A stretch of 62,459 nucleotides of DNA, taken from a virus (Duplodnaviria > Caudoviricetes). The translations under genes were made by a program, and so were the position numbers. Where the stretch lies: IMG/VR virus record IMGVR_UViG_3300030099_001770, positions 1 through 62,459 of that record. The stretch is one strand, 5' to 3'. This document shows positions 1 through 62,459 of this stretch, piece by piece; the stretch's first letter is position 1; each line of letters starts with the position of its first letter. Under the pieces are notes generated by a model. The model did not search any database. It was given only the letters and a program-made list of their open reading frames with translations, and was not told the DNA's origin.

Positions 1-521
1 ACAAACAGAACACCAACTCCACCAGCACCTCTAAGTGTTTTAAGAATAATTGGAAACTTACTATCAAGTTCCTCTAATGCAGAATCTATATCATCTACTG
101 TAGGAACAAGAACACTTTTTGGTTGGTCTAATCTGAAATCTTTTAGTCTAACATAACTACGATACTTATCAGCACAAATTTGAATAGTAGTTCTACTATT
201 AACACAAGTTATACCAATTCTTTCTAATTCAGAAATCAAGTCTAGGTGACTATCTCTAGTCGGTGTTCCTCTTATAAAAACAACAGTATCTTTAGAATTA
301 ATTTCCATATTATCTTCTTTATTAGAGATAATGTATTTACCATCATCAAAGGTTAAGGATGTTTTCTTAAATTCACATAGAATAACTTCCATACCCATTT
401 TCTTGGCTTGTTCTTCAAACTTGGTTGCAGTCTTAGACTTGTCGCCTACTTCAACTGTAAGAATAACTACTTTGTAGTCTTCAGTTGTTTCCTCTGACAA
501 GAATTGACTAAAAGTTTCCAT
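1..521 (-). CDS. rimK: RimK-family ATP-grasp ligase (3' end outside window; not in ORF track)
   Basis: Manual translation from ATG at 521: METFSQFLSEETTEDYKVVILT...CVNSRTTIQICADKYRSYVRL...FPIILKTLRGAGGVGVLF. The N...DK and P.I.K...G..G.GV motifs are typical of RimK/LysX. Open to the window edge. Confidence 0.8.
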   Translation of the reverse strand, partial: METFSQFLSEETTEDYKVVILTVEVGDKSKTATKFEEQAKKMGMEVILCEFKKTSLTFDDGKYIISNKEDNMEINSKDTVVFIRGTPTRDSHLDLISELERIGITCVNSRTTIQICADKYRSYVRLKDFRLDQPKSVLVPTVDDIDSALEELDSKFPIILKTLRGAGGVGVLF

Positions 522-523
522 CT

Positions 524-937
524 TTATTCTTTCTTTTTACCAATATTATATTTGGTTTCAAGTAACCATTCATTTTTTTCTTTAAAACTAATTACTTTTA
601 TTTGTGATAATGGTGCAGCCTCAACTACACTTTTACCTACAACATTTATTAATCCCCAATCTGATAAAAGATTAGCGATTGTATTTCTTCTTGCAATATC
701 GTTTTCTGAAATGTTTGTGTCCTTACCATCTAGAGCAAATAACTCTTTGAAATGAACAATGTAATATTTACCTTGTTTATGTAAAATATGGCAGGACTGA
801 AATAGAGTTTTGTTTTTTCTTGACGCAACACCAATACGAGAAAGTGTCTCACGAACTTTTAGAAAGTCATCTGGTTCTTTCAAACCCACCTCAAGCATTT
901 GGTCTGGTTTCCATAAACTATCATTCATTTTTTCCAC
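524..937 (-). CDS. regA: translational repressor RegA
   Basis: DDFLKVRETLSRIGVASRK..LFQSCHILHKQGKYYIVHFKELFALDG signature; T4 order 45-44-62-regA. Confidence 0.97.
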   Translation of the reverse strand: MEKMNDSLWKPDQMLEVGLKEPDDFLKVRETLSRIGVASRKNKTLFQSCHILHKQGKYYIVHFKELFALDGKDTNISENDIARRNTIANLLSDWGLINVVGKSVVEAAPLSQIKVISFKEKNEWLLETKYNIGKKKE

Positions 938-2249: not shown

Positions 2250-2259
2250 AAACTAATCC

Positions 2260-2919
2260 TCAAGCAGTTTCTAGTGCAATAAAGTATTCAATATCTTTAT
2301 TAATATTCTTGAAATTAGAAATACCTTTTGATGATACCTTAACCTCATAGTCACCAGAAAGTAACTTTAGGTTTTCTACTTTAAAATAGAATTTTTGATT
2401 AGGTGTGCCAGGCAAATCATCTCCAACTTCAACACTAAAACTGTTTGATGTATCATTCTTTCTATCTGAAACTCTAAGATTCATCTTACCACCTTCATCT
2501 ACATCCAGAACCATATCTGGAACACCAAGAACAGATGAAGCCTTCAACACTTGATTAAATACACTTTGTTTAAGTGTAAATGTTGCATCTGGGTCAGGCA
2601 TTGTGATATCAGATTTTGGTGTAGTCACAACAGTTGGGTCACTATAAAAGTAATTTAGTGATTGACCACCTTGTGATATTTTTACACTACTATCACCAAA
2701 GTCTAACTCTGGGTCATCAAACAATGACATTGCAGATAGGAACTCGTTCAAATCATAGATTGCGAATTCACTTTCAAATGTATCTGGTAAAGATGCTTTT
2801 GATACAATGTTTTTCATTTGAGACATTGTTGCAATCTGATTACCAGAAGTCACCAATAGATTAGCGTTGATTGTAGAATAGTTCTTCAACACTTCTCTAG
2901 TATCATTACTAAGTTTCAT
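2260..2919 (-). CDS. gp45: sliding clamp (probable start MKLSNDT at 2919)
   Basis: MKLS..T..VLKNYSTIN, FAIYDLNEFL, ENLKLLSGDY; AGGAG lies upstream of 2919. Confidence 0.95.
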   Translation of the reverse strand: MKLSNDTREVLKNYSTINANLLVTSGNQIATMSQMKNIVSKASLPDTFESEFAIYDLNEFLSAMSLFDDPELDFGDSSVKISQGGQSLNYFYSDPTVVTTPKSDITMPDPDATFTLKQSVFNQVLKASSVLGVPDMVLDVDEGGKMNLRVSDRKNDTSNSFSVEVGDDLPGTPNQKFYFKVENLKLLSGDYEVKVSSKGISNFKNINKDIEYFIALETA

Positions 2920-2920
2920 A

Positions 2921-3238
2921 TCAATTTTTCTCCTTGTCATGATTATGTAATGCGATTATACCATAGTGGATTACTTTAAGCAAGTCTTTTCTTGCATCTT
3001 CTCTAGTACCTTTTTTCCCATAGCGTTGGGCGTACTTTAGAATATTACCAATACAGAATCCAGTACCATGTCCACTATCTAGAATGAACTCAGTTGCTTG
3101 AAATTTGTTTTGGGAATAATGTTGGTCGTAGGTATTATCTACATATTCTTTTAGTTCATGAAATATTCTATCTTCAGAATATTTGTAATGTATAGATTGT
3201 TCTACGACAGGCTCTTCTTTTTTACCAAAGATTTTCAA
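2921..3238 (-). CDS. DUF3310/SaV-like protein (T7 gp1.7-related nucleotide kinase family)
   Basis: HY...GFCIGNILKYAQRYGKKG...DLLKVIHY motif; TTG start. Confidence 0.7.
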   Translation of the reverse strand: MKIFGKKEEPVVEQSIHYKYSEDRIFHELKEYVDNTYDQHYSQNKFQATEFILDSGHGTGFCIGNILKYAQRYGKKGTREDARKDLLKVIHYGIIALHNHDKEKN

Positions 3239-3262
3239 ATATAAACTCCATAATATAATATT

Positions 3263-3288
3263 GGGAAGAGGGGGAAACCCCCCTCTCC
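3263..3288 (-). terminator. GC-rich hairpin downstream of the wHTH gene (terminator or processing site)
   Basis: Minus strand GGAGAGGGGG-TTT-CCCCCTCTTCC; no strong U tract. Confidence 0.45.
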
Positions 3289-3297
3289 GATTTCAGT

Positions 3298-3555
3298 TTA
3301 GTATGCGTACTTTGTACCAAGTACAGATGCAATACCAGCAGAGATGATTTCCCTAGAGGGAGCTCCTAATCTATATGCAACACCTTTTGCAGTGTCGTTT
3401 GTATAGATACAATGACCTTCACTTTTTAGAGTATCAATCATTTTAGTTGGTGATACAAGGTCAAATCTTTTTCTCAAAGTTTTCCATGTTACATTTTCAC
3501 CTTTAGACAGAAGGTTTAGTACCTTCTGTTTTTTAGACATTTTAGGTCTACTCAT
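3298..3555 (-). CDS. small basic winged-helix/HTH DNA-binding protein
   Basis: 85 aa, KKQKVLNLL..GENVTW..LR.RF.....IDTLKSEGH.IY; strong AAGGAG RBS and its own promoter. Confidence 0.6.
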   Translation of the reverse strand: MSRPKMSKKQKVLNLLSKGENVTWKTLRKRFDLVSPTKMIDTLKSEGHCIYTNDTAKGVAYRLGAPSREIISAGIASVLGTKYAY

Positions 3556-3588
3556 AATATATTCTCCTTATCATGATTTACTGTTCAG

Positions 3589-3617
3589 ACTATAACATAA
3601 AAAAGGGGTGATGTCAA
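3589..3617 (-). promoter_or_regulatory. sigma70-type early promoter for the wHTH gene
   Basis: TTGACA (3617-3612), 17 nt spacer, TG-n-TATAGT (3594-3589). Confidence 0.8.
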
Positions 3618-3626
3618 GTCACCCCT
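3599..3626 (-). terminator. Rho-independent terminator after hsp20
   Basis: AGGGGTGA-CTTGACA-TCACCCCT followed by a T run on the minus strand. Confidence 0.85.
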
Positions 3627-3641
3627 TAGTATTTCTATCAA

Positions 3642-4097
3642 TTACTTGATAGTAATTAGTTGAGGTTTTTTCGCCTCTGGTACAATTCTCTCCAATGAGA
3701 TTGTTAACATCCCATCTTTAAGTTCTGCACCGTTTACTACGATATCATCTGCGAGTGTAAACTTTCTTGTAAAGTTTCTTGCAGAAATACCTTTGTAAAG
3801 AGTATACTCATCAGTTGTATCAGTATCTTTATCTTTGATTGATTTAACTGTGAGAACACCTTCTGCAACTTCCACTTCAATATCTTTTTTACCGAAGCCT
3901 GCGACAGCCATTTCAATTACAAATTTGTAATCTTCTGTCTTTTGGATGTTGTAAGGTGGAAAACCAGTTGACTCTGCTTGATGAGTTACATAGTCGAACA
4001 ATCTATCGAATGTTCTATCAAACCCCACAGCATAGGGAGTCATATGGTTGTAATCAAACGCCTGAAGGGCGTTTCTAAGTGTGCTTAAATTTGTCAT
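3642..4097 (-). CDS. hsp20: small heat shock protein (Hsp20/IbpA-like)
   Basis: FPPYNI...IEMAVAGF...GIS.RNF.R.F.LA....V..A.LKDGML.I.L alpha-crystallin signature. Confidence 0.97.
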   Translation of the reverse strand: MTNLSTLRNALQAFDYNHMTPYAVGFDRTFDRLFDYVTHQAESTGFPPYNIQKTEDYKFVIEMAVAGFGKKDIEVEVAEGVLTVKSIKDKDTDTTDEYTLYKGISARNFTRKFTLADDIVVNGAELKDGMLTISLERIVPEAKKPQLITIK

Positions 4098-4102
4098 TTT
4101 AT

Positions 4103-4122
4103 ATCTCCTTATTAAGCAAGAT
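4103..4122 (-). promoter_or_regulatory. ROSE-like RNA thermometer hairpin occluding the hsp20 Shine-Dalgarno
   Basis: Minus strand AUCUUGCU-UAAUA-AGGAGAU: the U(U/C)GCU motif pairs with AGGAG, leaving a bulged G, just upstream of the AUG. Confidence 0.75.
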
Positions 4123-4156
4123 TAATATTTGCATACCCACAATGGCATATGCATAA

Positions 4157-4251
4157 TGATAATGTCGGTGGGCCGCACCGATAAATCCTAAGATGTCTTA
4201 CCATCTCTGTACCAATAAAGGTCTACGAAGGCCTTGTACTGGACATTATCA
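4157..4251 (-). ncRNA. multistem structured RNA in the hsp20 leader (unidentified)
   Basis: Closing stem UGAUAAUGUC/GACAUUAUCA, with internal stems GUAC..AGG..CCU..GUAC, AGAUG/CAUCU and UCGGUG/CACCGA. Confidence 0.55.
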
Positions 4252-4255
4252 CTAC

Positions 4256-4263
4256 TATTTATA
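4256..4263 (-). promoter_or_regulatory. T4-type late (gp55) promoter for the hsp20 leader
   Basis: Perfect TATAAATA directly upstream of the structured RNA. Confidence 0.75.
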
Positions 4264-4306
4264 TGGGGATTAATTTTCAAAAATCAACCCCCACACAAAA
4301 CTTTTT

Positions 4307-5248
4307 TTAGGCAGCCTCTGCATATTCTAGAGCCTTGTCAAGTGCAGTTAACTTGACCCTACGATTTCGTCCATACCATGACGATTCTATTCTACTTGAA
4401 GTTTCACGACCTTGAACATGGTCTGCCATGTAAGTAACAGTGTTAAATGCGTTCCAGAATGAACCTTGAGCAAAGTTTGCGCCAGGTTGAGTATCTAAGT
4501 TTTCCATAGCGATTTTCGCATTGTTGGAAGTAAATGGAAAAACACCGTCTACTTTTTCCTTTGCAGGCGAACCATAAACTTCATTGAAGTATTGAACAAT
4601 ATTTTCTGAAGTATATCGTTTTGAACCAAGGAACTCAGCCATTGACTTATATTGTTCCATTTTTTCTTTTGCAATACCCATTTGTTCTTTCACTTCAGAA
4701 GAATCAAACTCCTTACGGTGATTGACTTTTAACATTGCATTACTATCTTGTGATAGTGAAAGTGTCAATGTGTTATTGCAAACAACACGAATTGGTGTCA
4801 TACGAATATCAATCGCCTTACCAAACTCATGTGGATTAGAGAACAAGAAATAATTCTCTGTTACATCACCATTGAAAAGTTCAAATGATTCGTTGGTCTT
4901 TGCGAGAGCCCAAACCATCTTACCACCATTCAACGAACCAGCAGTATGCATCTGCATATCACCAGCACGAACATACTCTTCAAAGAAGTTAAACGCTTCT
5001 GCGTTCTGAACTGGATTCCAACCTTTACCTACAATGTCAAGAACTTCACCGTCAGATAAACGGACAAGTGCCTGTTTAGATTTAACAGTTGACCCACCAG
5101 CAGTTACCAAATCTTGTTTTTCAACAGACCAATCAACTCCTGCTTTTTGCATCATCTGTTCTGGTGTTAAATCATCAATGACCTTCACTCCAAGACCATG
5201 CCATGGCAACTCACCAGCGTAAGCCATTGTTTCTACCATATGTGCCAT
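4307..5248 (-). CDS. DUF932/DUF945 phage-plasmid family protein
   Basis: MAH.VETMAY....PWHGLG, PVQN..AF.FF, TAGSL.GG..VW.LA, TPIRVVCNNTL. Confidence 0.9.
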   Translation of the reverse strand: MAHMVETMAYAGELPWHGLGVKVIDDLTPEQMMQKAGVDWSVEKQDLVTAGGSTVKSKQALVRLSDGEVLDIVGKGWNPVQNAEAFNFFEEYVRAGDMQMHTAGSLNGGKMVWALAKTNESFELFNGDVTENYFLFSNPHEFGKAIDIRMTPIRVVCNNTLTLSLSQDSNAMLKVNHRKEFDSSEVKEQMGIAKEKMEQYKSMAEFLGSKRYTSENIVQYFNEVYGSPAKEKVDGVFPFTSNNAKIAMENLDTQPGANFAQGSFWNAFNTVTYMADHVQGRETSSRIESSWYGRNRRVKLTALDKALEYAEAA

Positions 5249-5286
5249 ATTTTCTCTCCTTTATGACTGATTCTTAATTCTCTTAT

Positions 5287-5315
5287 AATGTACCATGTTA
5301 TCATAACAAAGTCAA
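5287..5315 (-). promoter_or_regulatory. early sigma70 promoter for DUF932
   Basis: TTGACT-17-TACATT with extended TG; spacer contains the palindrome TGTTAT-N-ATAACA. Confidence 0.75.
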
Positions 5316-5324
5316 GTCTTTTTT

Positions 5325-5512
5325 AAAAAATGCCTGGCTTTTAGTCTGGTCGCATCAGTGACAGTCACACTAGTCAGGACTTTTAGCTAGTGTGCCCCCA
5401 TATCACCTTGTGTGGACATAGCTTTCAATTCATATGGGGAGAACCTACTCGCACTGTTTCCGTCCTTAGAATATCGTCACAACATTTCCGAATCACTTTC
5501 TCTCTTGATTAT
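5325..5512 (-). ncRNA. candidate early structured ncRNA (about 190 nt)
   Basis: GC-enriched segment with no credible ORF, between two promoter copies; stems CCCCAUAU/AUAUGGGG and CACACUAG/CUAGUGUG; ends in a U run. Confidence 0.5.
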
Positions 5513-5518
5513 GTATAT

Positions 5519-5547
5519 ACTATACCATGTTATGAGAACAAAGTCAA
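5519..5547 (-). promoter_or_regulatory. early sigma70 promoter (near-duplicate of 5287-5315)
   Basis: TTGACT-17-TATAGT; 5523-5556 is a near-identical direct repeat of 5291-5324. Confidence 0.8.
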
Positions 5548-5560
5548 GTCTTTTTTTGAA

Positions 5561-6088
5561 TTAATTTCTACCCCAAAATTCAATAGGTTTGACCATTTGG
5601 GTATTATGAAAGAGATACCAACAACAGTTGTCTTTACCAACACTCTTAGTTCCTTCAATCCATTTAACTCGTCCAATACTAACAACCTTTTTCAACATTG
5701 TCAAGTAGGGAATTGATTGTTTTGTGTGTATCCAATCTGCATCAAAAAGAAGCCATGTTGGTTTAAAATCTGCAAAGTGTTCTATCATGGGATGTAGAAT
5801 TTTACGATTCCAAGGTGGGTTTGTGATAATATATTCACACTGTGTGTAACCTTGAGTAAGTGCATCAGCCTCTTTGACCCATTCACTTTTAGGTTCTAAA
5901 TCATATGCATATCTAACATCACCACCATGTTTTGCAAGATGACTAATTAGTCTACCATCACCAGCACATGGTTCTGCATATGAGAACGGTTTCTGTGGTA
6001 AGTGTGGTATTAGTGGTAGAACTGCTTCATACGGTGTTGGATAATAGTCTCTGGGTATTCTTTCAAAGTCACTTCTCTTTCCCATCAT
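5561..6088 (-). CDS. small amino-type (m6A/m4C) DNA methyltransferase
   Basis: D.YPTP, motif I AEPCAGDG, motif IV ITNPPW; no cognate restriction enzyme nearby. Confidence 0.85.
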   Translation of the reverse strand: MMGKRSDFERIPRDYYPTPYEAVLPLIPHLPQKPFSYAEPCAGDGRLISHLAKHGGDVRYAYDLEPKSEWVKEADALTQGYTQCEYIITNPPWNRKILHPMIEHFADFKPTWLLFDADWIHTKQSIPYLTMLKKVVSIGRVKWIEGTKSVGKDNCCWYLFHNTQMVKPIEFWGRN

Positions 6089-7791
6089 GCAACCTTACTA
6101 AAGTTTCTAGTTTTCTCAAATTTAATTGTGTGTCTAAACTTATCAAATAACATATCTTGTTTATGTGAAATAACAAATACATTTTCTTTATCAAATGTAC
6201 CTAAAATTTTAAGAAATGCATCTGTACCATCTGTATCTAGTGAACTATCAAATATTTCATCTAATATTAACAGATTAGTATTCGTAGAGTTTTTCATCTT
6301 TGCGATAGCTCTCCAAGTAAAAAGAAGTGCAAGGTCAATACGCATCTTTTCACCCTCTGAAAAATTTGCATAGGTAAAATCATCACGAAATCTTGATTTA
6401 ATTGTTTCATTAAAGTTTTCATCAATATTAAAGTTAACAAAGAAATCCATAGATGATAGATAAGTGTTTATCAACTTATTCATAATAGGCAGATATTGTT
6501 TAACAATCTTTGTTTTGATACCAGTATCTTGCAATAGATTTCTTGCAACATCATAATAAAACAATTCTTCTTTCAACTTTTTTGAGGTTGATTCTAAACT
6601 ATACAACTTTTCTTGTAGTTTGTCAAGCTTTTTTAAATCTTCTTCAACAATATTTTGGTCTTTTATTTGTTTGACCTCAGCCTCTAGAGTTGAATTAAAC
6701 TTTTCAAGTTGAGTAATTGTACTACGATATTTACCAATTTCTATTTGATTTTTTTGGATTGCGATTGATAAATTTCTAAACTCTTTTACCTTTTTGTTTA
6801 CCTTATCCATTTCCTCTGATAATTTATTTAATCCAGTTTCAAGTTCTCTAACTTCTAGAAGTTTTTCATCTATAGTTTTACATTTGAATTCTTCATCAAT
6901 ATGTTGATAACAAGTTGGACAATCATCATTGTCTTCAAAAAATGATATAAGAGTGGAGTGTCTATTGTGTTTATCTTTCAAAGAAAACTGCACATCTTTC
7001 AATTTATCTCTTTTTGTAACAATAACATCTTCACCTTTCATCGCTTCCAAAAAGGTATTGGTGGATTGTTGTAACTCATCTTCTTTCTTTTGGTTTGTAT
7101 GGATTTCTTCTTCATTAGCTGATATAAGATTTGTCTTTTCAGTAAGAATAGTATCCCTATTGTTTTTAGAATCTTCAATATATTTCTCTTGTATTTCTAT
7201 CTTACTTTTTGTAAGGTCAGTAGCATAATTACTATCTGTAATATTTGTATTTACTTCTCTTACTTTTGTTTTAAGAACAAGGTTCATTAAAGAGAATATC
7301 TTTATATCTAGGATATCTTCTACAACCTCTCTACGATTCTTAGAGTTTAACTGCATAAATGGTACGAATGTAGAACTACCAAGAATAACAACTTGTGTAA
7401 ATGAACGATAGTTGAATTTAAGTATTTGTTGTTCTAGATGTTTCTGATAATCCTTTGCATTTGCGTTCTGGTTAATCATCACACCATCAACATAGATTTC
7501 AAACTTATTAGGTTTAATACCACGAACAATTTTGATATGTTTATTTTGTGTAGTAAATTCTACCTCAACAATAGCTTCTCTTTGATTAATAGAGTTGAGT
7601 AATTGAGATTTACTAATTTGTCTAAATGGTTTATTGAACAGAACAAAACATAGTGCATCTAGAATAGTTGATTTACCAGCACCATTTTCACCCACAACTA
7701 ATGTTGATGGATTCTGGTCAAGTTGAATTTCGGTGAAAGTATTTCCAGTTGATAGGAAGTTTTTCCACCTTACAGTATTAAATATAACCAA
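6085..7791 (-). CDS. gp46: recombination endonuclease subunit (Rad50/SbcC-like)
   Basis: GENGAGKST, CPTC zinc hook, FSEGEK signature, ILDEIFD. Confidence 0.97.
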   Translation of the reverse strand: MVIFNTVRWKNFLSTGNTFTEIQLDQNPSTLVVGENGAGKSTILDALCFVLFNKPFRQISKSQLLNSINQREAIVEVEFTTQNKHIKIVRGIKPNKFEIYVDGVMINQNANAKDYQKHLEQQILKFNYRSFTQVVILGSSTFVPFMQLNSKNRREVVEDILDIKIFSLMNLVLKTKVREVNTNITDSNYATDLTKSKIEIQEKYIEDSKNNRDTILTEKTNLISANEEEIHTNQKKEDELQQSTNTFLEAMKGEDVIVTKRDKLKDVQFSLKDKHNRHSTLISFFEDNDDCPTCYQHIDEEFKCKTIDEKLLEVRELETGLNKLSEEMDKVNKKVKEFRNLSIAIQKNQIEIGKYRSTITQLEKFNSTLEAEVKQIKDQNIVEEDLKKLDKLQEKLYSLESTSKKLKEELFYYDVARNLLQDTGIKTKIVKQYLPIMNKLINTYLSSMDFFVNFNIDENFNETIKSRFRDDFTYANFSEGEKMRIDLALLFTWRAIAKMKNSTNTNLLILDEIFDSSLDTDGTDAFLKILGTFDKENVFVISHKQDMLFDKFRHTIKFEKTRNFSKVA

Positions 7792-13934: not shown

Positions 13935-13976
13935 TTGTTAATCCCCTTTAACTATATTAGTATTATTTATCATAAT

Positions 13977-15287: not shown

Positions 15288-15328
15288 TTGAGTCTCCTTA
15301 TTAATATATTAATAATCCTCTTACACTA

Positions 15329-15336
15329 TATTTAGT
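15329..15336 (-). promoter_or_regulatory. late promoter for gp22
   Basis: ACTAAATA in the intergenic gap. Confidence 0.6.
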
Positions 15337-15338
15337 AA

Positions 15339-15989: not shown

Positions 15990-16000
15990 ATTCTCACTCC

Positions 16001-16384
16001 CTATGCAAGATTATTATATCCAGAAACTTTTCTAAGTTTTAACCAGATAGTTCCTACGGATGCACTTCCGTTTGTTAATAATATATCACCAGTTACACCA
16101 GAACTTGCTGGATTTGGAATAGAAGGCATAGACTGAGCGCCAGTGTTATACGCACCATTTCCGTTTAGTGATAATGCAACATCATTAGAACTTGCATCAA
16201 ATAAAATATTTGTTTGTGAACCAGTAGTCCATTGACAAGCAACAATACTTAATCTTGGATTTGAAGCCGCACCCTCAAGGTTAGATGCGTCAACAATACT
16301 GGCATTAGTATTTGTTCCAGTTGTTGTTACCTTAACAACTGTTTCAAAATCTTTATCCGAAAGGATAACTGCATCTACTGCCAT
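16001..16384 (-). CDS. hypothetical virion/head-associated protein
   Basis: 127-aa ORF in the head operon with AGGAG RBS. Confidence 0.6.
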   Translation of the reverse strand: MAVDAVILSDKDFETVVKVTTTGTNTNASIVDASNLEGAASNPRLSIVACQWTTGSQTNILFDASSNDVALSLNGNGAYNTGAQSMPSIPNPASSGVTGDILLTNGSASVGTIWLKLRKVSGYNNLA

Positions 16385-18321: not shown

Positions 18322-18342
18322 AATAACTCCTTTTCGTTGTAC

Positions 18343-18350
18343 TATTTAGT
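18343..18350 (-). promoter_or_regulatory. late promoter for gp20
   Basis: ACTAAATA upstream of an AGGAG RBS. Confidence 0.6.
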
Positions 18351-18357
18351 ACGACTA

Positions 18358-18888: not shown

Positions 18889-18892
18889 TTAA

Positions 18893-47040: not shown

Positions 47041-47263
47041 CTTTTTCTACCAATTTTATTAAGAGAGATTTAATTTCATGCATCTCACACTTTAATATAT
47101 TTATTTCTCTTGTTGCATCTCTTAGTTCATCTTTCTGTTGTTGCAAAGTTCTTTTTCTTTGAACAGCAGCAAGATACGCACTTCTATTAGTATTTATCAC
47201 TGCCTTTGAGTGCATATCCTTTATTAAATCTGAATGACCTTCTACTGGTTTATAATCCGACAT
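47030..47263 (-). CDS. small coiled-coil virion protein downstream of the VrlC-like gene
   Basis: VEGH..L.KD..S.AVINT...Y...EIN.LK.E..EIK.LL. Confidence 0.65.
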   Translation of the reverse strand: MSDYKPVEGHSDLIKDMHSKAVINTNRSAYLAAVQRKRTLQQQKDELRDATREINILKCEMHEIKSLLIKLVEKDGR

Positions 47264-50200
47264 TATGTTGCCAATGCGATTGCTCGCAAGTCCTTAATTC
47301 TTGGTGGTTCTGAACTGTTAGTTCCTTGCATTACAATTTTAATTGATAATGCAATAAATTCATCTAGATTATTTGCAGTATATTCATACTCTTTAAAATC
47401 TGAGTCAGATAGTGATGCGTTGACAACATTATCTGGGCCACCATTTGTATTGAAGAAGTTATATCCAATCTCATCAAAGTCAGATGCGTCATCAGAACGA
47501 AGTATTTTAAACATAAGTTTAATGTCTGCACTTGCAAATCTATTTGCATCTAGAATAACTTTAATACCAGTAGCAGGAGTATCAAGTGCAACTTTTCTTG
47601 TCATATAAATTGCTTCATTACTATCACCACTTGGAAGAGTTGATGCAACAAAATCACCTTGTAGTGCAGATACACCCATATCAGCTGGAGTATTAATATT
47701 ATCAAGTCTGTTACTAAACGCAACAACTGACTTTCTATCTAAATCTACCATAGGAGATAGATTTTCCAATGACGTTTGTAAATCAATATCTAGATAAAAA
47801 GATTTCTGTCCAGCAAGTTCATTAGTTTCATTAATCTGACTTGCAATCATCCTTGGTGTATCAAAATAACAGTTTTCTCCAAGAACAATTGATTTTGCAA
47901 AAGTAGTTCCTTGAAGATTAAATGATGTTTCTGTACCAGATGGTGATGTAGCACTTGTAGTTCTTATAGCAGCAGTTATATCTGTATCTGGGAACGATAT
48001 AGTCGGAACTAAAGTTTGTGTTCCATCAATCATTGCGTTCTCAGTTGCAACTACAGAATTACCACCTTGATTTGAACTTGAAGTAGCAGCTGTTGATGTT
48101 GCAACAGTATAACTATCAATTCTAATATTTGCAAGAGCAGTATGAGTTTTATTTACTTGTGTTAGTGGTATACCATTCAATTGATATAATTCTACAGTCG
48201 CACCATTAGAGTGAGTTGCGGCTGTTCCCTCAAGTCCTCTTGTAGATGCAGTAATTGTTGTTCCAGAGATAGTACCTACAATTACCTCACTACCTATTTT
48301 AATATAGATATTTGAACCATCATTACTTGCAACAAAGTCAGAGTTTGCATTTATTGAAATACTTGTTTGTGATGTAGAACTAATTGCACCAGCAAGTGTT
48401 GTGGTAATACCAGATGATACTCCACTAATAATCACATTATTAGATGTAGAATACATATGGTGATTTGGATGATTTACTTGTACAAATGTTTGACCAGTAA
48501 TAGTTCTAATTGGGTCAACTGGAAGTGTTTGACTTGGAACAACATCATTATTTAATGTAAGTTTACCACTAGAACCAGCAACAAAACTTGCTCTATGAAT
48601 TGTAAACTTCATATCTTCATATTGATATGAATTCCAAGTTGTATTGTTTTGTGATTTAAACAACACACCCAAGTGTGGTTGTTTTGAAATCATTCTTGTA
48701 CCACCAATATCAAGTTCACCCATTCTTGAAATCCATGCAAAATAACTTTCACAAGGAGTGAAAAGAACGATACAATATTCAACTTCATCTTTGACATAAA
48801 CTGGTGCATCAAATCTAAATGTTGTAGTTGCAGTTGCATCAGCAGATAAGTTAACATTACTAATCTTTTTACTAGATACAGCTCTTGCAGCTGCCGTATC
48901 AATTGTCATTGACGTATCCGAATTGATACCAGTAACCTTACCTACAAGTGCCTGTGTATCATAGTTTTTTGTATCAGTGGATACACCAGAAGTTGTATTT
49001 CCAGCACCAGTAATAGTAATTGTGTCACCAATTTTAAGATTGTGTGTGCCAGTTAAGAAGTCAGTATTTGTACCAGTAATAGTTGTACCACCAGCACTCA
49101 TTGATACTGTACCCTTCATGTAAGGACTTAGGTACTTTCCAGCAAAAGGTAACTGTTTAATTGTTGGAAAACCATTTACAACTTCACGAATTTGACAAAG
49201 AACTGGAATATTTGCATCTTTTCTCTGGAAGAAAACATCAATCTTAGTAATCATTTCTCCACCAGATTCAGTAGCCTTAAATGTTTGTGCAAGTGGGTCA
49301 GACCCTTCTTCACCATCTTCTTCTTCTCTTTGATTTGCAAAAGTTTGTGAACGAATTAAATCTCTTCTACTTTCATTTCTAGAAGTTGCACTTGAAATAG
49401 TTCTTGTATCAGAAACATTTTGAGTTTCAATTCTACCATTTCTAGTTGCAATAATTTCTTCTTGAATATTTCTAAGAATACCAGTAGATGAGAAAATAGC
49501 TTGAGCGAATGTCTCTGGTTCTGGATTTGTAAGATTAGTTTCAGAAGAAGTTAATCTGAAAACTCTTTGTCCAGTTTTAAACTTTGGATTACCAGCAACA
49601 TTTGGGTCTGGAATAGTGAATACACCACTGACCTCTCCGTTACCGTCTGCAATAATAGAACCACCCAAAGATGCAGTAGAATAACCATTTGCATTAGGTG
49701 TTACAAAAGAACTAACATTAACTTTATCGAAGAAAGGATACATTCTGGTGACTGGTTTTAAACCTTGTGCAGTAAATGTAATATTAACACTTCTCATGAA
49801 AGGAATTAGTGCAGTAGAACGTAATCTGTCACCATCACTTTCATAATCAATTTGTGCAACCACTTGAGTATTTAAACCAGTTCTTCTTTGTCTTTGAGTA
49901 GTGGTTGTTGTAACTCTAGTAGTTGTATCTCTAAATGTATTGACTTGTGTACTCCACCAATTAAAATTTGTAGTATTAAATGTACTAGAAGAAATTTGTT
50001 GTCTTGTAGTTGAAGTACCAGACCATTGTGTCTGCCATGAGTTCCATACAGTACCCATTGCATTTCCAACTTGTGCAACCAACTGGTCAAAGTTACCCTC
50101 TTTGTTTATAATAAGAGCTGGAAGTCTGTTAACTTCAAACCACTCATCACCAGATGGATTTAGTTGACATACACCAGTCCATGTAAATGTGAGAACTGGG

Positions 50201-53200
50201 TTTAAGTTTTCAACTCTTGATGCGTAAGGTTGTTGCACTGAAACAACTTCTGTATATGGTAGAGTAATCATATCACCAGTTTTTTGATAACCATCTCCAG
50301 TTCTTTGTGCATCAGTAGTATTTTCTTCAATAAGTTTAATACCTTTCATAAAGAATTTTGGACGAAGTTCATTTCCTTGATAGTCAATTGAGTTTCTATA
50401 ATCATCATTCTGAACATCACCCACAGAGTGACCAGAGAAATTATCTACAATAAATCCAGATTTAAATCTATCAAGTCCATTCTCATCTTGAACTTGGAAT
50501 GACTGTGCATCTTTTTCTAAAAGATTTAGTGCAGTATAATATTGAAGTTGATTAATTCTTTTTTCAAGGTCACCTATATCTGCCATTGTATATCGTTTAT
50601 TTTGAGTTTTACTAAAAGTAATATCATCAATATCTAACACATATGGCGGCAGAGAAATTTCTGCAAGTAACATAGCCTTTTCTAATTTTTTAGGAAATTC
50701 TGGAGTCTCTGAAGGAACACCATTAAGAACTTTAAATAAACCAGCTTCAGTTAAAAATAATAAATCTCTTCTTCCAAGGAAAAAGTCAAAATCATATTGA
50801 AATTGTGAATTGTCTTTTGGTATTTTAATATCAGATGCACCAGTTCCAGCAAAAGACCTTGATGCAAAATCAAAAGAGGTAGATGTAACTTTATGTGTAG
50901 TCTGACTTTGAATACTAGTTGTAGTATCAATAGTTGCATCACCAACCCTTGGTCTAAAATCAACTGTGTCTCTTAGGTCAAACTCACCAGAAGGAGCTTT
51001 AACCTCTGGGTCAACTCTTGTTGAGGTATAAGTTGGAATTTCAGTATAATCTACACCAGAGTATGAGTCAACTGTAAAGAAATCACCAGTACCATGTGCA
51101 AAGTAATTACATACAATTAATAATTTTCCAACTGGAGTTGGTTTACCACCTTTTCTTACAAGTCTTGAAATATCATAAAAGTTATCTCTTTGTCCAGTGT
51201 CAAGAGTAAATCTATCTGTGATATTTTTAGACCCAGCAGTAAACGTACCTAGTGTTGCAGTTGCAGTAGAAGTTTGACCAGTGATTGTTTCATTTGAAGT
51301 AAATGATTTACCATTTGTTACAATAAATGTAATTGGATTAGTTGTATTAATGATTACTGCATTACATCCACTAATTGCACCATTAATAGTTTCACCTTTT
51401 GTAAATGTGCCTGATACACCAGTAACCGTAAACTGTGGAAGAGTTGGATTTGCACTTGCATCTTCTGAGTCAAGAACTGCAAATAGTTTATAAACATCTG
51501 CACGACCAAGTGATATTTCTTTATGTTGAGATGCAGTACCATAGGCAGGCCCTGAACCAAAGTCTGCATCAACAAGAACTAGATGACCAGATTGATTAGT
51601 TTTAGTTTTTTCAGATGCAATTGTTCTTGTTATTGTTGCAACAACTTTTACCTTTGCACCGTTTCCTAAAATTTCTGGATTAGTAATAGTAAGTGTATTT
51701 GCATTTACCACATAAGTTTGTGCAGGCGTTGTACTTGCCTCAAGGTTAATTACATCACCAGCAGCTGCTGTATTTGAACTACCACCAATTGCAGAACCAG
51801 CAGTAATAATTGTGATTACACAGTCTGTATTTGACTTTGCAGAGAAGGTTTCATTAGAACCAGCAGTTAAGTTAATTTCACCAGATGATGTTGTTGTCAC
51901 AACAAACTGTTGTCTAAATGTAACTGTAGTTTGTGGAGTTCCAGTATTTGCATCAGTTTTTAAAGTTTTAATAGTATTTTTTCTTAGTTTTCTAAGAAGA
52001 AGATTCTTTTGTTGGTCACGAAGAGTATTTCTTAATCTGATAATTTGCACAGAAGTAACAGCAGTTGCAGAGTTACTTGCAAGTGTAAGTGAAGTATTAG
52101 ATGCAATTGCATTTACTCTTGCAGTTAAATCATTACCAGAACCAGCTGCGCCAGGCACAGTGACAAAATCTCCTACTTTTAAATCAGAGGTAAATGTAGT
52201 ATTAAAACCAGTAACAGTTGCATTAGAACCATTCATAGAAACATTACCACCAAGTGTTAGAGATGTATCTAATACTAAGTCAGCGGTAAAGTCTGCACCA
52301 GTATTAGGTGAATTCATAAACAATGATTTGACATCATCAAAGTTTCTTGTTGTAATAGATGAAACTGTAACAGCTGCACCACCAGAGTTTTCTATAAACT
52401 GACTTGCATTATTAGAAACTGTTTGTGAAGATGAAATAAGGTTTTCACCAACATTAAAGTTACCAGAGACAGTAATTAATTGAATTAAATTATTAACAGC
52501 ACTATGAACAAATCCAGTTGCACCAGAAGATGCACCAGTAATTTTTGAACCTTGTGCTACTCCATTTGGACTTCCAGCAAAGTTTGCACTAATTTGGATT
52601 TGTGTAAACATACGAATATCAAAAAGATATGCGTTGAATATTGCATCAGAGTCGGATGCATTAGATAACGTATCATTCGTTGTATTACCAGATGCGTGTT
52701 CAAATGCACGAGCTCTTGCGACTCCCACTGGTGAGTTTGGAGTGCTTCCTCTAGAACTATTTTTTATACTATGAAGTTCTACTGCACGATATGGTTCTGC
52801 GACTTCACCAGAAATAAATGGTGAGAGGTCTGGAGTACCAAACACATTAGTTACTTTTGTAAAATTACCAACCTCTACATTTGTAATAGCAGAGTCAAAA
52901 TTCTGTGTAGTTCTAGGTTTAATTAAATCTAGGTAAGTTGGAACAATTGTTTCAATTTCATAACCACGAACATAGGCCTTGCCTGGGTCAACTTGAACAG
53001 TTGCAAGGTCACTAGATGGGGTATTACCACCATCAGTGGTTTGACCAGTTGCATATACACCTTCATTAGTTCCGTCATCTAAAGCTTCTTTAATGTCAAT
53101 ACCAAAAGAACGAACTGTATAGTTTCCAGATTCATCAAAAGTTCTTCTTGCAATATTTTCATTAAAAATATTATAATCAGTTTTGTCAACTAATCTTTCA

Positions 53201-54063
53201 ACAACACCATTTTTCAATCTCATCAGTTCAATGAAATTTTCATCATCTGTAGAACCTAACTCTAATTTATCTAAAGTTAGTGTAATTTGTAATCTGTGAG
53301 CACCCTTTGCATTAACATTTGAAGAACCAGCTGCATTATCTAAAAGAGTTGTATCTGCTTCTGGTGTTACTAATGTTTCTGCAACAGTAAGACCAACACG
53401 ATAAGATGGAATATTACTATATTTGTCAAGAATAATTCTTTGTGCTGGTACACGAACAAATTGTCCACGAACAAAATACACACCCTCTTCAATACTTGCA
53501 GAAGACCCTACATCTGTGCCACCAGTGGTTAAAAGAGTTGAAGAGTTGTTCCCAGAACTAAATGAACTAATTGCAACATCAGCTGAAATACTTTCTCCAT
53601 TAACAAATTCTACAGTTTGGTTTGCAACCGAAGCACCAGTTGTACCAGTTGCATTTGCAGTAGTTGTTGCAGTTGTTAAATATTTTACATAAAGAGTTGG
53701 TGCATCAGTTGTGGTTGCAGCTGATACTTGAATAACTCTTGCAGTAATACCAGAGATATTACCAGTAATTATCGAACCAACGTATGAGTCAAGATATCCA
53801 GAAATAGATGCAGAATTAAATGTAGATTGTAATTTTACAGCATAATAATTATTTGTAAAACCAATCTGGCCTGGGATGACCATAGACCCTTCTTTAAAAA
53901 AGTGTCTACCATGTCTTTCAATTTGATTCTGCATAATTGATTGCAGAGTCGTAAGTTCTCTTGCCTGAACTGCAAAGCCCGGCCTAAAAAGAACTCTATG
54001 AAACTGGTCTGCTGGGTCAAAATCATCATAATATGGTGATACGTTTAAATCGGTTTTTTGCAT
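47263..54063 (-). CDS. large baseplate-associated structural protein (VrlC/DUF4815-like)
   Basis: DLNVSPYYDDFD...LFRPG.AVQARELT.LQS, ARRTFDESGNY, KAYVRGYE, DPLAQTF, PRIKDLRAIALA. Confidence 0.88.
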   Translation of the reverse strand: MQKTDLNVSPYYDDFDPADQFHRVLFRPGFAVQARELTTLQSIMQNQIERHGRHFFKEGSMVIPGQIGFTNNYYAVKLQSTFNSASISGYLDSYVGSIITGNISGITARVIQVSAATTTDAPTLYVKYLTTATTTANATGTTGASVANQTVEFVNGESISADVAISSFSSGNNSSTLLTTGGTDVGSSASIEEGVYFVRGQFVRVPAQRIILDKYSNIPSYRVGLTVAETLVTPEADTTLLDNAAGSSNVNAKGAHRLQITLTLDKLELGSTDDENFIELMRLKNGVVERLVDKTDYNIFNENIARRTFDESGNYTVRSFGIDIKEALDDGTNEGVYATGQTTDGGNTPSSDLATVQVDPGKAYVRGYEIETIVPTYLDLIKPRTTQNFDSAITNVEVGNFTKVTNVFGTPDLSPFISGEVAEPYRAVELHSIKNSSRGSTPNSPVGVARARAFEHASGNTTNDTLSNASDSDAIFNAYLFDIRMFTQIQISANFAGSPNGVAQGSKITGASSGATGFVHSAVNNLIQLITVSGNFNVGENLISSSQTVSNNASQFIENSGGAAVTVSSITTRNFDDVKSLFMNSPNTGADFTADLVLDTSLTLGGNVSMNGSNATVTGFNTTFTSDLKVGDFVTVPGAAGSGNDLTARVNAIASNTSLTLASNSATAVTSVQIIRLRNTLRDQQKNLLLRKLRKNTIKTLKTDANTGTPQTTVTFRQQFVVTTTSSGEINLTAGSNETFSAKSNTDCVITIITAGSAIGGSSNTAAAGDVINLEASTTPAQTYVVNANTLTITNPEILGNGAKVKVVATITRTIASEKTKTNQSGHLVLVDADFGSGPAYGTASQHKEISLGRADVYKLFAVLDSEDASANPTLPQFTVTGVSGTFTKGETINGAISGCNAVIINTTNPITFIVTNGKSFTSNETITGQTSTATATLGTFTAGSKNITDRFTLDTGQRDNFYDISRLVRKGGKPTPVGKLLIVCNYFAHGTGDFFTVDSYSGVDYTEIPTYTSTRVDPEVKAPSGEFDLRDTVDFRPRVGDATIDTTTSIQSQTTHKVTSTSFDFASRSFAGTGASDIKIPKDNSQFQYDFDFFLGRRDLLFLTEAGLFKVLNGVPSETPEFPKKLEKAMLLAEISLPPYVLDIDDITFSKTQNKRYTMADIGDLEKRINQLQYYTALNLLEKDAQSFQVQDENGLDRFKSGFIVDNFSGHSVGDVQNDDYRNSIDYQGNELRPKFFMKGIKLIEENTTDAQRTGDGYQKTGDMITLPYTEVVSVQQPYASRVENLNPVLTFTWTGVCQLNPSGDEWFEVNRLPALIINKEGNFDQLVAQVGNAMGTVWNSWQTQWSGTSTTRQQISSSTFNTTNFNWWSTQVNTFRDTTTRVTTTTTQRQRRTGLNTQVVAQIDYESDGDRLRSTALIPFMRSVNITFTAQGLKPVTRMYPFFDKVNVSSFVTPNANGYSTASLGGSIIADGNGEVSGVFTIPDPNVAGNPKFKTGQRVFRLTSSETNLTNPEPETFAQAIFSSTGILRNIQEEIIATRNGRIETQNVSDTRTISSATSRNESRRDLIRSQTFANQREEEDGEEGSDPLAQTFKATESGGEMITKIDVFFQRKDANIPVLCQIREVVNGFPTIKQLPFAGKYLSPYMKGTVSMSAGGTTITGTNTDFLTGTHNLKIGDTITITGAGNTTSGVSTDTKNYDTQALVGKVTGINSDTSMTIDTAAARAVSSKKISNVNLSADATATTTFRFDAPVYVKDEVEYCIVLFTPCESYFAWISRMGELDIGGTRMISKQPHLGVLFKSQNNTTWNSYQYEDMKFTIHRASFVAGSSGKLTLNNDVVPSQTLPVDPIRTITGQTFVQVNHPNHHMYSTSNNVIISGVSSGITTTLAGAISSTSQTSISINANSDFVASNDGSNIYIKIGSEVIVGTISGTTITASTRGLEGTAATHSNGATVELYQLNGIPLTQVNKTHTALANIRIDSYTVATSTAATSSSNQGGNSVVATENAMIDGTQTLVPTISFPDTDITAAIRTTSATSPSGTETSFNLQGTTFAKSIVLGENCYFDTPRMIASQINETNELAGQKSFYLDIDLQTSLENLSPMVDLDRKSVVAFSNRLDNINTPADMGVSALQGDFVASTLPSGDSNEAIYMTRKVALDTPATGIKVILDANRFASADIKLMFKILRSDDASDFDEIGYNFFNTNGGPDNVVNASLSDSDFKEYEYTANNLDEFIALSIKIVMQGTNSSEPPRIKDLRAIALAT

Positions 54064-56824: not shown

Positions 56825-56834
56825 TGACTACTCC

Positions 56835-60657: not shown

Positions 60658-60659
60658 AA

Positions 60660-62459
60660 CTAGTATCCACTAGAACTACTTGATGAACTTGAACTTGAAC
60701 TTGAAGAAGAACTACTTGTAGAGCTGGTTGATGCAGAGGCATTTGCTGAACTTGCACCAGTGTAAGAACTTGAAGTTAATACACCAACACCAGCACTCGC
60801 AGAACCAGTTGCAATAGTATCTACATTTGCAACAACAATTAAATTTGCAATGTCAATTTCTAACACTTGATTTCTAACTGCAATAACATCATTTGATTCT
60901 GGGGTAACAATCATTCTAATTTTAGTGGATGATACACCGTCAACATTTGATATCTCTGTAATGTTAAGTGAAGTTAATACTATCTCACCAGTTTTATAAT
61001 TAATAGTACCAGCATTATTATCTTGATAAGTTTTTGTAGTACCATCTACAACATAATACATTCTTGCATTTCCATCCCCATCATCATCTAAAAACATTTC
61101 ATTTATATTACCTTGAATTTTAAATCCACTGGATTGTAAAATACCACCAAGTTCTTTATTATGACCAGCGTGTGGATTATGTAACGCATTGTTAAAAGGT
61201 ATTGTGTACTTAGTTGCAGTATTAAGTGTTGGTATAAAATCTTTACTTAATTTTACAGTTGTAATATTAGATGTTATTGATGGGTCAGTATTATCAATTA
61301 AACTAGAAAATGGAGAAAATCTAAAAGCTGTATCAAACTTACTTAAATTATTTGTATTAAAATCAGTAATTGTTTTTTTAACATTAGATATTAATGTCTC
61401 TTGTGCTTTAACAGTATTTTTAGAGTTGTATGAAAAGTTAACATTCAATCTTATTTTTGTATATTCTGGGTCAACAATCTCTGGTGTTACAGATGCAACT
61501 GTATAATTGTTTTTTAAATTTTTAATAATGTCTAATTTTGCTGATGCAGTAATAGAACCAGTTGTTGGAACAATAGAAATATAAACTTTACCATAGGTAG
61601 GAACATCATTATCCTCTCCACCATAAACTTGAACAGACTTTGCATTTGCATAAACTTTTGGTACAACTGCTTTGAAGTCGTTTACTGTAACTGCACGACC
61701 TTGAGCTGCATAATCAAGTGGTGCATTAAATTTAATAGATTGAATACTTTCTTTCTCTGCACCACCAGATGCATTTGAAACTGTCGCAGTTGTAATATTA
61801 GTAATACCAGAGATAGTTGCAGAAGTTGAAAAAGAACTTGCACCATTTGCTCTTGTTTTATTTGTAACAACATATCTCATACGAACAACATTACCATCAG
61901 ATAAAGCTTTACCAATAATACCATCACCAAAATATATTTCAAATTTACCATCCACACTTTCTTGTAAAAAATAAACATTTGAGTCAGATGCAGTTTGCGT
62001 AGTATCAGTCGCAAGAGTAAATGTTGTAGAAGAGGTAGAACTTGAATTATCAAATACATCAACAATCAAGGTAGTTGTATCACCATTTTCATCATTAACA
62101 TAAAACTTTTGGTCTACATTATCGACATCAACCGTATAACGATTTGTTACATATGTTCCCTCATAAATGGGAAGATTAGTAAATGAGATAACACCATTTT
62201 CAATTTGTGTTGAATGTTCTGCAACCGTAACAAATTGATAATTAACATCATCAATCACCGTTGTAAATACTGTTCCTACTGGAATAGTTGCAGATGTTAA
62301 ATTACCAATATTATTTAAAGTTACATTTACAAATGCAATTGGAGCTCTAACAGAGTTAGGTATATAACCTAATGTCTTTGCGTGAGATACAACCGAAGAA
62401 CGAACTGACGCAGTATCAAGAAATGCTTCATTTGCAACCATATTCATATTCATTGCAAG
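60660..62459 (-). CDS. gp6: baseplate wedge subunit (5' end outside window)
   Basis: NE.FLDTA..RSSVVSHAK.LGY.P.S, FGDGIIGK, ESI.SIKFNAP..Y..Q.RAVT..D. Confidence 0.96.
   Translation of the reverse strand, partial: LAMNMNMVANEAFLDTASVRSSVVSHAKTLGYIPNSVRAPIAFVNVTLNNIGNLTSATIPVGTVFTTVIDDVNYQFVTVAEHSTQIENGVISFTNLPIYEGTYVTNRYTVDVDNVDQKFYVNDENGDTTTLIVDVFDNSSSTSSTTFTLATDTTQTASDSNVYFLQESVDGKFEIYFGDGIIGKALSDGNVVRMRYVVTNKTRANGASSFSTSATISGITNITTATVSNASGGAEKESIQSIKFNAPLDYAAQGRAVTVNDFKAVVPKVYANAKSVQVYGGEDNDVPTYGKVYISIVPTTGSITASAKLDIIKNLKNNYTVASVTPEIVDPEYTKIRLNVNFSYNSKNTVKAQETLISNVKKTITDFNTNNLSKFDTAFRFSPFSSLIDNTDPSITSNITTVKLSKDFIPTLNTATKYTIPFNNALHNPHAGHNKELGGILQSSGFKIQGNINEMFLDDDGDGNARMYYVVDGTTKTYQDNNAGTINYKTGEIVLTSLNITEISNVDGVSSTKIRMIVTPESNDVIAVRNQVLEIDIANLIVVANVDTIATGSASAGVGVLTSSSYTGASSANASASTSSTSSSSSSSSSSSSSSSSGY
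60675..60718. repeat. GAACTT microsatellite encoding the poly-Ser tail of gp6
   Basis: GAACTT hexamer repeats; protein ends ..SSSSSSSSSSSSSGY. Confidence 0.8.

Follow-up and report, generated by a model that had tools for sequence, protein, structure and literature searches.

The DNA analysed here is IMG/VR virus record IMGVR_UViG_3300030099_001770, a single contig of 62,459 nucleotides that is referred to throughout as the window (positions 1-62459, no strand assigned); it is part of a marine T4-like phage (Kyanoviridae, Melnitz-like) and is purged uniformly of restriction-type words. The subject of this analysis is that purge, the flanking bases that exempt certain sites from it, and the methyltransferase genes that may account for the exemption. 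CheckV estimates the window at about 40% of a genome. A simple longest-ORF rule yields 71 open reading frames (ORFs), every one on the minus strand and together covering 95% of the window, and PHROG matches among them make up a T4-type set for replication, recombination, head, tail and baseplate (regA, gp62/44/45, gp46/47, gp55, UvsW, UvsY, gp23, gp20, gp18, gp17 and baseplate wedge proteins). The left edge (1-521, minus strand) holds the N-terminal part of a RimK-like ATP-grasp gene. The only methyltransferase-like gene, at 5561-6088 on the minus strand between gp46 and a DUF932 gene, encodes a 175-residue amino-methyltransferase-like protein with the motif I EPCAGDG and the motif IV TNPPW; it matches PHROG 799 'DNA methyltransferase' (E 3.1e-37) and has no Pfam match and no PDB match by sequence or profile. 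Its motifs are invariant in 27 of 27 sequences, and its 4857 homologues include isolate phages mostly of Alphaproteobacteria (Roseobacter, Rhodobacter, Rhizobium, Caulobacter). This protein is a secondary candidate for the modifying enzyme. The nearest isolates are Methylophilales phage Melnitz and Pelagibacter phage HTVC008M, and Melnitz shares about 72% nucleotide identity with the window over 43% of a 7.9-kb probe, with a gene order in Melnitz-1 close to that of the window for nearly every gene.

The purge was measured against 300 within-gene synonymous-codon permutations of the 71 ORFs, which preserve the protein sequence and the codon usage of each gene and do not preserve codon-pair bias; 200 such shuffles were used for 6-bp palindromes and further words. 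An earlier note on this DNA, made by eye, had reported that GATC and GGWCC were missing, and both are indeed absent: GATC occurs 0 times against 175.1 +/- 9.3 expected (lowest shuffle 145), a maximal-order Markov null agreeing with 202 expected, and GGWCC 0 times against 19.9 +/- 2.7 (lowest shuffle 14). CCTG/CAGG is found at 94 sites (45 CCTG and 49 CAGG) against 347.6 expected, and only four of these have neither a 5' G nor a 3' C, so that the rarity and flank bias described in the note hold, as HCCTGD falls to 4 against 212.7. Thus all three words that the note had proposed to compare with a codon-controlled or Markov null, HCCTGD, GATC and GGWCC, lie far below expectation. About a dozen further sites beyond those listed in the note are also absent or almost absent. 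The palindromes CGCG (14.5 expected), AACGTT (19.9), TTCGAA (12.2), ACATGT (9.4), TACGTA (9.3), ATCGAT (8.7), GTGCAC (7.8), GGTACC (7.6), ACCGGT (5.5) and CACGTG (4.7) do not occur at all, nor do the non-palindromic GGAACC (11.4) and CACGTA (14.7), while CATCG is reduced to 7 against 50.4, CCGG to 4 against 25.5 and CTGCAG, which contains an internal TGCA, to 3 against 37.7; TCGA is partly purged, at 16 against 94.5. CpG is depleted generally in the window (850 against 1104), and the deficits of CGCG, TCGA and CCGG are partly due to this. The depletion of CCTG is present in every reading frame and in both orientations in which the words are expected; with a slash for the codon boundary, CAG/G occurs 0 times against 28, xCA/GG 2 times against 141.5 and CCT/G once against 30.7. 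As the depletion is independent of frame and orientation, it acts on the DNA and not on codons. The purge of restriction words is certainly real.

The sites that survive follow a single flank rule: the GpC formed at the boundary of a tolerated site reads GCY on one strand or the other, which is to say that any GpC is accepted except YGCR. This rule was derived from the sequence before it was compared with any published enzyme specificity. The earlier note had proposed that any GpC would do, and its core idea stands, namely that a site is tolerated when its terminal C lies in a modified GpC context and that sites unable to overlap such a context are purged; the extension to any GpC does not, since it is ruled out by ACCTGC (0 against 65 expected), CCTGCR (1 against about 63) and CTGCAG (3 against 38). 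HCCTGC is itself depleted (20 against 103), but YCCTGCY is tolerated; divided by the two bases that follow CCTG, YCCTGCT is found 17 times against 12.4, YCCTGCA 0 times against 19.4 and ACCTGCA 0 times against 32.6, and of CCTGCA, at 4 against 55, all four survivors read GCCTGCA. GCCTGNN is tolerated with every following pair of bases. Within the window, 89 of the 94 surviving CCTG sites are masked by GCY where a share of 0.21 is expected (binomial P 1.4e-53); masked CCTG is at neutral frequency (89 against 73.7) and unmasked CCTG is nearly eliminated (5 against about 275).

The same flank is seen at the other purged words. The survivors of CATCG (7 of 7, P 5e-6), CCGG (4 of 4), CTTAAG (3 of 3), CTGCAG (3 of 3) and CCATGG (2 of 2) are masked without exception, 19 of 19 combined, and nine unpurged control words (CTAG, CATG, CAGCTG, CAATTG, CATATG, CTGG/CCAG, CTTG, CCTC and CCAC) have no enrichment of masking. 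The words with no survivors are those that do not begin with C or end with G and cannot straddle a GpC. An RGCY rule of the M.CviJI kind was also considered and is ruled out, for 55 of the 70 tolerated GCCTG sites are YGCC and the footprint therefore needs NGCY. The GpC contexts of the window are themselves skewed, GCY-type tetranucleotides numbering 1005 against 1290 expected and YGCR 926 against 716, with TGCA at 715 against 524 (z +14) and AGCA/TGCT at z -9.5; the TGCA excess is common to the window and Melnitz and is absent in HTVC008M. One might speculate that the deficit of GCY and the excess of YGCR reflect a cost of carrying the mark, perhaps imposed by modification-dependent nucleases.

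Avoidance and escape can both be read in the codons. Asp is encoded overall by 893 GAT and 349 GAC, yet before a codon starting with C the counts are 0 GAT and 118 GAC, as the earlier note had seen, and its reading of Gly-Pro pairs is borne out as well (16 of 16 are GGC or GGG followed by CCN). Ile after a codon ending in G is never ATC (0 of 158). All 27 Pro-Gly pairs are written g/CCT GGN, CCA GGC or g/CCS GGC, and xxG CCT G is found 35 times against 5.8 expected, so the escape form is actively chosen: the masked form is under positive selection. Very-short-patch repair was considered for the excess of CCAG/CTGG (670 against 412) and set aside; a synonymous route of escape from xCA GGT to xCT GGT is the preferred explanation.

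Several individual sites deserve mention. The CCTG at 4483-4486 (minus strand) lacks a 5' G, but its context ACCTGGC reads GCCAGG on the other strand and it is masked in the CCWGG sense; HCCTGGC is tolerated in relatives also. The true exceptions are three unmasked sites, TCCTGA at 5375-5378 (minus strand), which lies in a 312-bp intergenic gap without an ORF (5249-5560) downstream of the small methyltransferase gene, ACCTGA at 41105-41108 (plus strand) and CCCTGA at 51551-51554 (plus strand). The sole CCTGCR without a 5' G is CCCTGCG at 38841-38844 (plus strand). The four CCGG sites are those described in the earlier note, each with a 5' G or a 3' C: gCCGGg at 18803-18806 and CCGGc at 39009-39012, 40093-40096 and 53979-53982, no strand being assigned. 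Elsewhere in the window, three paralogous tail-fibre-like genes of PHROG 4492 (37895-38998, 40465-41511 and 43974-45182, all minus strand) are interleaved with small chaperone-like genes as a repeated fibre cassette, and 47263-54063 encodes a structural protein of 2266 residues.

A likelier source of the mark would lie beyond the left end of the window. A 44-base probe from that end found a contig of 66,645 bp (G009, listed also as locus L478) that begins with 77 bases matching exactly the reverse complement of window positions 1-77 and whose footprint is that of the window: GATC 0, GGWCC 0, GCCTG 54, HCCTGCY 22 and 5 unmasked among 81 CCTG. Its genes run from the ATP-grasp gene through gp43, a methyltransferase of 399-419 residues, a 2-oxoglutarate (2OG) oxygenase of family PF05118, two unknown genes, MazG and UvsX to the rest of the replication module. 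The methyltransferase matches PF01555, a family of N4-cytosine and N6-adenine amino-methyltransferases, at 27.4 bits and is 91% identical to the homologue P0121; the motifs LDTSMGWGD and FTSPPY are read in both. S272, P273, P274 and Y275 do not vary in any of the 16 homologues aligned, and the family has over 2000 members. The motif SPPY marks N4-cytosine enzymes, and the neighbours of the protein in a language-model comparison are named cytosine-N4 methyltransferases; it has no PDB relative by sequence or profile search. The earlier note had suggested looking for a cytosine-C5 methyltransferase (C5-MT) gene in the rest of the genome, but no PF00145 match occurs in the window or in G009, which together make up about 129 kb of about 140 kb. 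The window also has no match to the Tet_JBP family PF12851, though the control genomes gave none either. At 3723-7450 of G009 the SPPY methyltransferase (3723-4919) adjoins an Asp/Asn-hydroxylase-type 2OG-Fe(II) oxygenase (PF05118, E 4.9e-13), which is the family that the Pfam scan finds there in place of Tet_JBP; proteins of 146 and 466 residues without a family follow, and the order of methylase then oxygenase parallels that of C5-MT then TET. The genes after the SPPY methyltransferase vary among relatives: a pyridoxal phosphate (PLP)-dependent enzyme in L162 (7080-7919), a PLP-like enzyme, a 2-hydroxyacid dehydrogenase and an asparagine synthase in L322 (6913-9957), and a GNAT-like gene with an unknown gene in L329 (3011-4591). 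They may encode tailoring enzymes, or may be metabolic genes with no bearing on the mark.

Loci of relatives were gathered around TerL, the small methyltransferase, regA, gp43, a C5-MT and the SPPY methyltransferase, and apart from G009 they are at most 92% identical to the window in nucleotides. The slot between gp43 and UvsX is occupied in two ways. All ten distinct records with a gp43 at least 86% identical to that of L161 and with sequence past gp43 carry the SPPY methyltransferase, and four records with a gp43 at 81-85% carry a C5-MT and a TET-like gene instead (PF00145, PF12851). C5-MT and TET stand side by side after gp43 in the sister lineages L333, L335, L334 and L338, in the distant L224 and in Melnitz, and Tet_JBP is present in L224, L240 and Melnitz. 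Records of the SPPY type and of the C5-MT/TET type obey the same GCY rule, and the rule, across unrelated sites, co-occurs in the relatives with genes for cytosine methyltransferases; that the base is modified, and by which enzyme, is a prediction. L224 (regions 926-1651 and 13399-19334), a fully purged lineage with a GC content of 30%, also has a Mom-family protein (PF25680, E 2.7e-45), and its C5-MT and Tet_JBP are followed by four genes without a Pfam family, one of which matches a phosphoheptose isomerase PHROG.

Close relatives that encode the same proteins avoid different words, as differing repertoires of host enzymes would lead one to expect. Neither GATC nor GGWCC occurs in clades whose TerL identity is about 83% or higher; L030/L031, L035-L041 and the 64% clade have GATC at normal levels, and the 73% TerL clade lacks TCGA. 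The wider group purges CCTGA, CCTGG and CCTGCR and tolerates CCTGT, which is purged additionally only in the clade of the window. HCCTGCR and HCCTGCY were counted in 197 loci of 8 kb or more, some of them from the same record: the 108 unpurged loci have 608 and 638 respectively, the 47 partly purged ones 7 and 215, and the 42 fully purged ones 8 and 173. In de-duplicated pooled relatives all 22 surviving CTGCAG are flanked and all 10 surviving GAATGC (within the clade) have a Y next to them; of surviving CTTAAG, all 17 in pooled relatives are flanked, against 12 of 46 in loci less closely related. When the window was aligned with 11 relatives of 81-91% identity, 18-48% of its CCTG sites were absent at the aligned place (2/14 up to 9/19), and hence masked sites turn over and unmasked ones do not appear. 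One close relative, L005 (TerL 96%, 17.4 kb), has 27 unmasked CCTG (12 HCCTGR and 15 HCCTGT) and no HCCTGCR, which could reflect mosaic ancestry or a weaker purge, and from which it follows that the purge of CCTG is recent and uneven within the clade.

The two isolates provide a natural comparison. In Melnitz-1 (L473, MZ577095), the genes at 2758-7598 that follow gp43 are a C5-MT, a Tet_JBP, an unknown gene, a P-loop-kinase-like gene (a weak match) and MazG, with RecA next; the C5-MT (PF00145) is 76% identical to that of L240 and the Tet_JBP (PF12851) 79% identical to that of L224. In the record MZ577095 this cluster is annotated as no more than a modification methylase with hypothetical proteins, and in the paper on Melnitz the gene is described only as a type II methylase; the passages searched in that paper contain neither TET as a gene name nor GATC (PMC9004378). 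Counts in 46 kb of Melnitz-1 and 44 kb of HTVC008M, given in that order as observed/expected, are 5/95 and 124/62 for HCCTGR, 0/18 and 44/12 for HCCTGCR, 35/17 and 26/12 for HCCTGCY, 0/72 and 48/41 for GGWCC, and 758/496 and 382/403 for TGCA. In Melnitz-1 the survivors of CCGG (8 of 8) and CTGCAG (4 of 4) are all flanked. Melnitz, which was cultured on OM43 strain H5P1, thus resembles the window in its purge, in the GCY rule and in a near gene-for-gene order, and differs from it in tolerating CCTGT, in having C5-MT, TET and a P-loop-kinase-like gene in the slot, and in having a peptide deformylase at the position of the small methyltransferase. HTVC008M, whose complete genome of 147 kb has neither PF00145 nor PF01555, has no purge of CCTG or GGWCC, no GCY exemption and no TGCA excess. 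It has an avoidance of its own, TCGA at 4 against 123 and CGCG, TACGTA, ATCGAT, GTGCAC and TTCGAA all at 0, and this occurs without a match to a cytosine methyltransferase family (locus L474).

The avoidance of restriction sites by phages and bacteria is well known: short Type II-like words, typically palindromes, are depleted in sets specific to the lineage. The phage of the window differs in that the avoidance depends on the flank, sites overlapped by GCY being at neutral frequency, and in the unusual width of the panel, which exceeds 15 words. It is also known from Dam and Dcm that a methylase with a short motif protects only those restriction sites that its motif overlaps. The mechanism proposed here is the same, except that selection would have fixed the overlap throughout the genome and that the motif is a three-base one specific to the phage. 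The open-access papers searched contain no account of site avoidance that depends on the flank in these phages.

Published enzymes and motifs come closer still. According to passages of Burke et al. 2021 (PMC8256090), C5-MT/TET pairs of marine viruses were expressed and the main target of these C5-MTs is a GpC[C/T] consensus, with one clade taking GpC[C/T/G] and not GpCA and another any GpC, and C or T is favoured by the TETs at +1, without preference at -1. The GCY target proposed for the phage is the GpC[C/T] measured there, and those systems are marine and lie on contigs described in these passages with T4-type genes, as here. The window and G009 differ from them in having an N4-type SPPY enzyme and an oxygenase of another 2OG family with no C5-MT, and the published enzymes were assayed in E. 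coli, with no mention of site avoidance in those passages, while the protective role proposed here is deduced from the genome. A follow-up preprint by the same authors states that GpC-limited marks are unlikely to protect broadly from endonucleases (10.1101/2023.12.21.572611). From single-molecule real-time (SMRT) sequencing of marine metagenome-assembled genomes (MAGs), RGCY is given in parts of Hiraoka et al. 2022 (PMC8919816) as the commonest modified motif of viral MAGs, called as N4-methylcytosine (m4C) in Myoviridae-like genomes, with m4C-type genes making up 62% of viral methyltransferases and GATC and CGCG among the commonest methylated motifs of prokaryote MAGs, which is a pointer to cognate restriction enzymes in a host. 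These viruses resemble the phage in being marine myoviruses with a GC-centred cytosine motif called as m4C, which fits an SPPY writer. The motifs in those parts of the paper are, however, RGCY, CCWGG and GGWCC, whereas the footprint of the phage needs NGCY and the phage avoids GGWCC rather than methylating it (PMC8919816).

Taken together, the window is part of an uncultured marine T4-like phage genome of about 140 kb whose DNA would be modified after replication at the cytosine of 5'-GCY-3'. Restriction enzymes of the host would select against GATC, GGWCC, CCTG/CAGG, CTGCAG, CCGG, CGCG, TCGA (in part), YACGTR, AACGTT, TTCGAA, ACATGT, ATCGAT, GTGCAC, GGTACC, CATCG and GAATGC. A site whose flank brings its terminal C, or the C paired with its terminal G, into GCY would be shielded and would remain at about its neutral level, and a site that allows no overlap of this kind would lose all its copies to synonymous change. 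It is likely that base modification in a GCY context, by whatever writer, explains the exemption. The likeliest writer is the SPPY methyltransferase of about 419 residues predicted beyond the left end of the window, between gp43 and UvsX, and to the reading in which the phage's own enzyme in this slot writes the mark, with the SPPY methyltransferase as leading candidate, a probability of roughly 0.7 can be given.

It is conceivable that no modification is involved and that the host enzymes simply fail on sites flanked by G, their recognition words being of the kind HCCTG. A requirement for 'not G' at -1 does fit most of the CCTG data taken alone. Nevertheless, this is improbable for two reasons: the same flank rule, with the same asymmetry between Y and R, is found at CCTG, CATCG, GAATGC, CTGCAG, CTTAAG, CCATGG and CCGG, unrelated words that share one rule and so cannot all belong to one enzyme, and the rule equals a measured methyltransferase specificity in the passages cited (PMC8256090). 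If a GCY mark is accepted, it might instead be written by the 175-residue NPPW methyltransferase of the window, by a C5-MT in the roughly 10% of the genome not seen (about 10 kb between the right end of the window and the far end of G009), or by a host enzyme. A single shared writer would explain why both types of slot have an identical rule, and the small methyltransferase gene is present in L082 (C5-MT/TET type) and, by position only, in L166 (SPPY type). Enzymes of the NPPW type act on exocyclic amino groups, which favours this one. On the other side, NPPW is typical of N6-adenine enzymes, Melnitz shows the GCY rule without a small methyltransferase gene, L136-L140 carry that gene without a purge, and PF00145 is absent from the about 129 kb of window and G009. 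Another writer is, on this evidence, unlikely.

The alternation of C5-MT/TET and SPPY methyltransferase in the slot, between lineages only about 15% apart in the gp43 protein, raises the further possibility that a C5-MT/TET ancestor shaped the sites and that the present SPPY lineage no longer masks GCY. However, a purge that holds unmasked CCTG at 5 against about 275 would also have cleared the 89 GCCTG/CCTGCY sites had they been unprotected, masked sites are gained and lost among relatives, and fully purged loci of the SPPY type keep 93 masked against 10 unmasked distinct CCTG sites; that the footprint is a relic is therefore very unlikely. Which of the two bases of the GpC carries the change cannot be read from sequence alone, and in some phages a deazaguanine occurs in a GGC context, so that the G might carry a 7-deazaguanine placed by a DpdA-type transglycosylase. 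No TGT/DpdA match (PF01702) is found in any of the five relatives' records searched, the control being positive in 14 of 14 genomes, the Pfam scan of G009 contains no que genes, and cytosine methyltransferases occupy the slot; little credence can be given to a modified G. Least credible of all is that codon-pair, dinucleotide or mutational bias has produced the pattern as a by-product: the general depletion of CpG speaks for it, but the purge is independent of frame and strand, many words are at exactly zero, closely related lineages with the same proteins avoid different sets, and the control words are unaffected.

Several observations sit less easily with a GCY mark written by the SPPY methyltransferase and weigh against it. 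ACCTGCY is absent (0 against 25.6) despite being masked, while TCCTGCY is at expectation, and this requires a second agent, for example an ACCTGC-type enzyme that is not blocked by modification of one strand; some close relatives (L005, L008, L010, L027) do carry ACCTGCY, and the pattern suggests a separate ACCTGC-type pressure in the lineage of the window. AAGCTT (3 against 15.6) and AGCT (128 against 195) are depleted despite their RGCY content; AGCTTA is at 0 against 16.1, TAGCTA and AGCTCA are also depleted, and survivors of the AGCT words have no flank pattern. The flank test for CCGG is weak, as the unpurged HTVC008M is flanked in 14 of 17 cases, and the counts pooled over relatives are not independent. 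On the side of the enzymes, neither PF00145 nor PF01555 is present in the window, G009 is tied to it only by the 77-base identical end overlap and the matching footprint, the PF01555 scores of the SPPY methyltransferase (26.0-27.4 bits) straddle the cut-off of 26.7, and this predicted writer would need the same GCY target as a C5-MT to which it is unrelated. The C5-MTs of the relatives are likened to the enzymes of PMC8256090 by target motif and not by sequence, and for the window and its relatives the argument for GCY modification is made from the sequence footprint.

A more tentative proposal, rather doubtful as it stands, is that a non-homologous SPPY methyltransferase has replaced the C5-MT/TET pair in the slot between gp43 and UvsX while keeping the same GCY target, and has brought its own tailoring genes, a 2OG-Fe(II) oxygenase or PLP-dependent and amidoligase enzymes. 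The target would have been kept through the replacement because the whole restriction-site landscape of the genome is locked to the motif. If this were true, the replacement would point to an undescribed hypermodification pathway based on N4-cytosine, and it would show that post-replicative modification at a short motif and the purging of sites together form a joint anti-restriction strategy of abundant ocean phages.

The enzymology of GpC[C/T] methylation, hydroxylation and glycosylation in uncultured marine phages has already been published, and it is the purpose of the mark that has been left open. The window, its relatives and Melnitz suggest a purpose in which complete coverage by the mark is unnecessary, since the phage rids itself of all the sites that lie beyond the mark's reach. 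A footprint of this kind allows the modification motif of a phage, and the restriction repertoire that it faces, to be predicted from sequence, and it flags a family of N4-type enzymes as candidate writers of GCY. The question of purpose becomes testable on an existing pair, Melnitz and OM43 strain H5P1.

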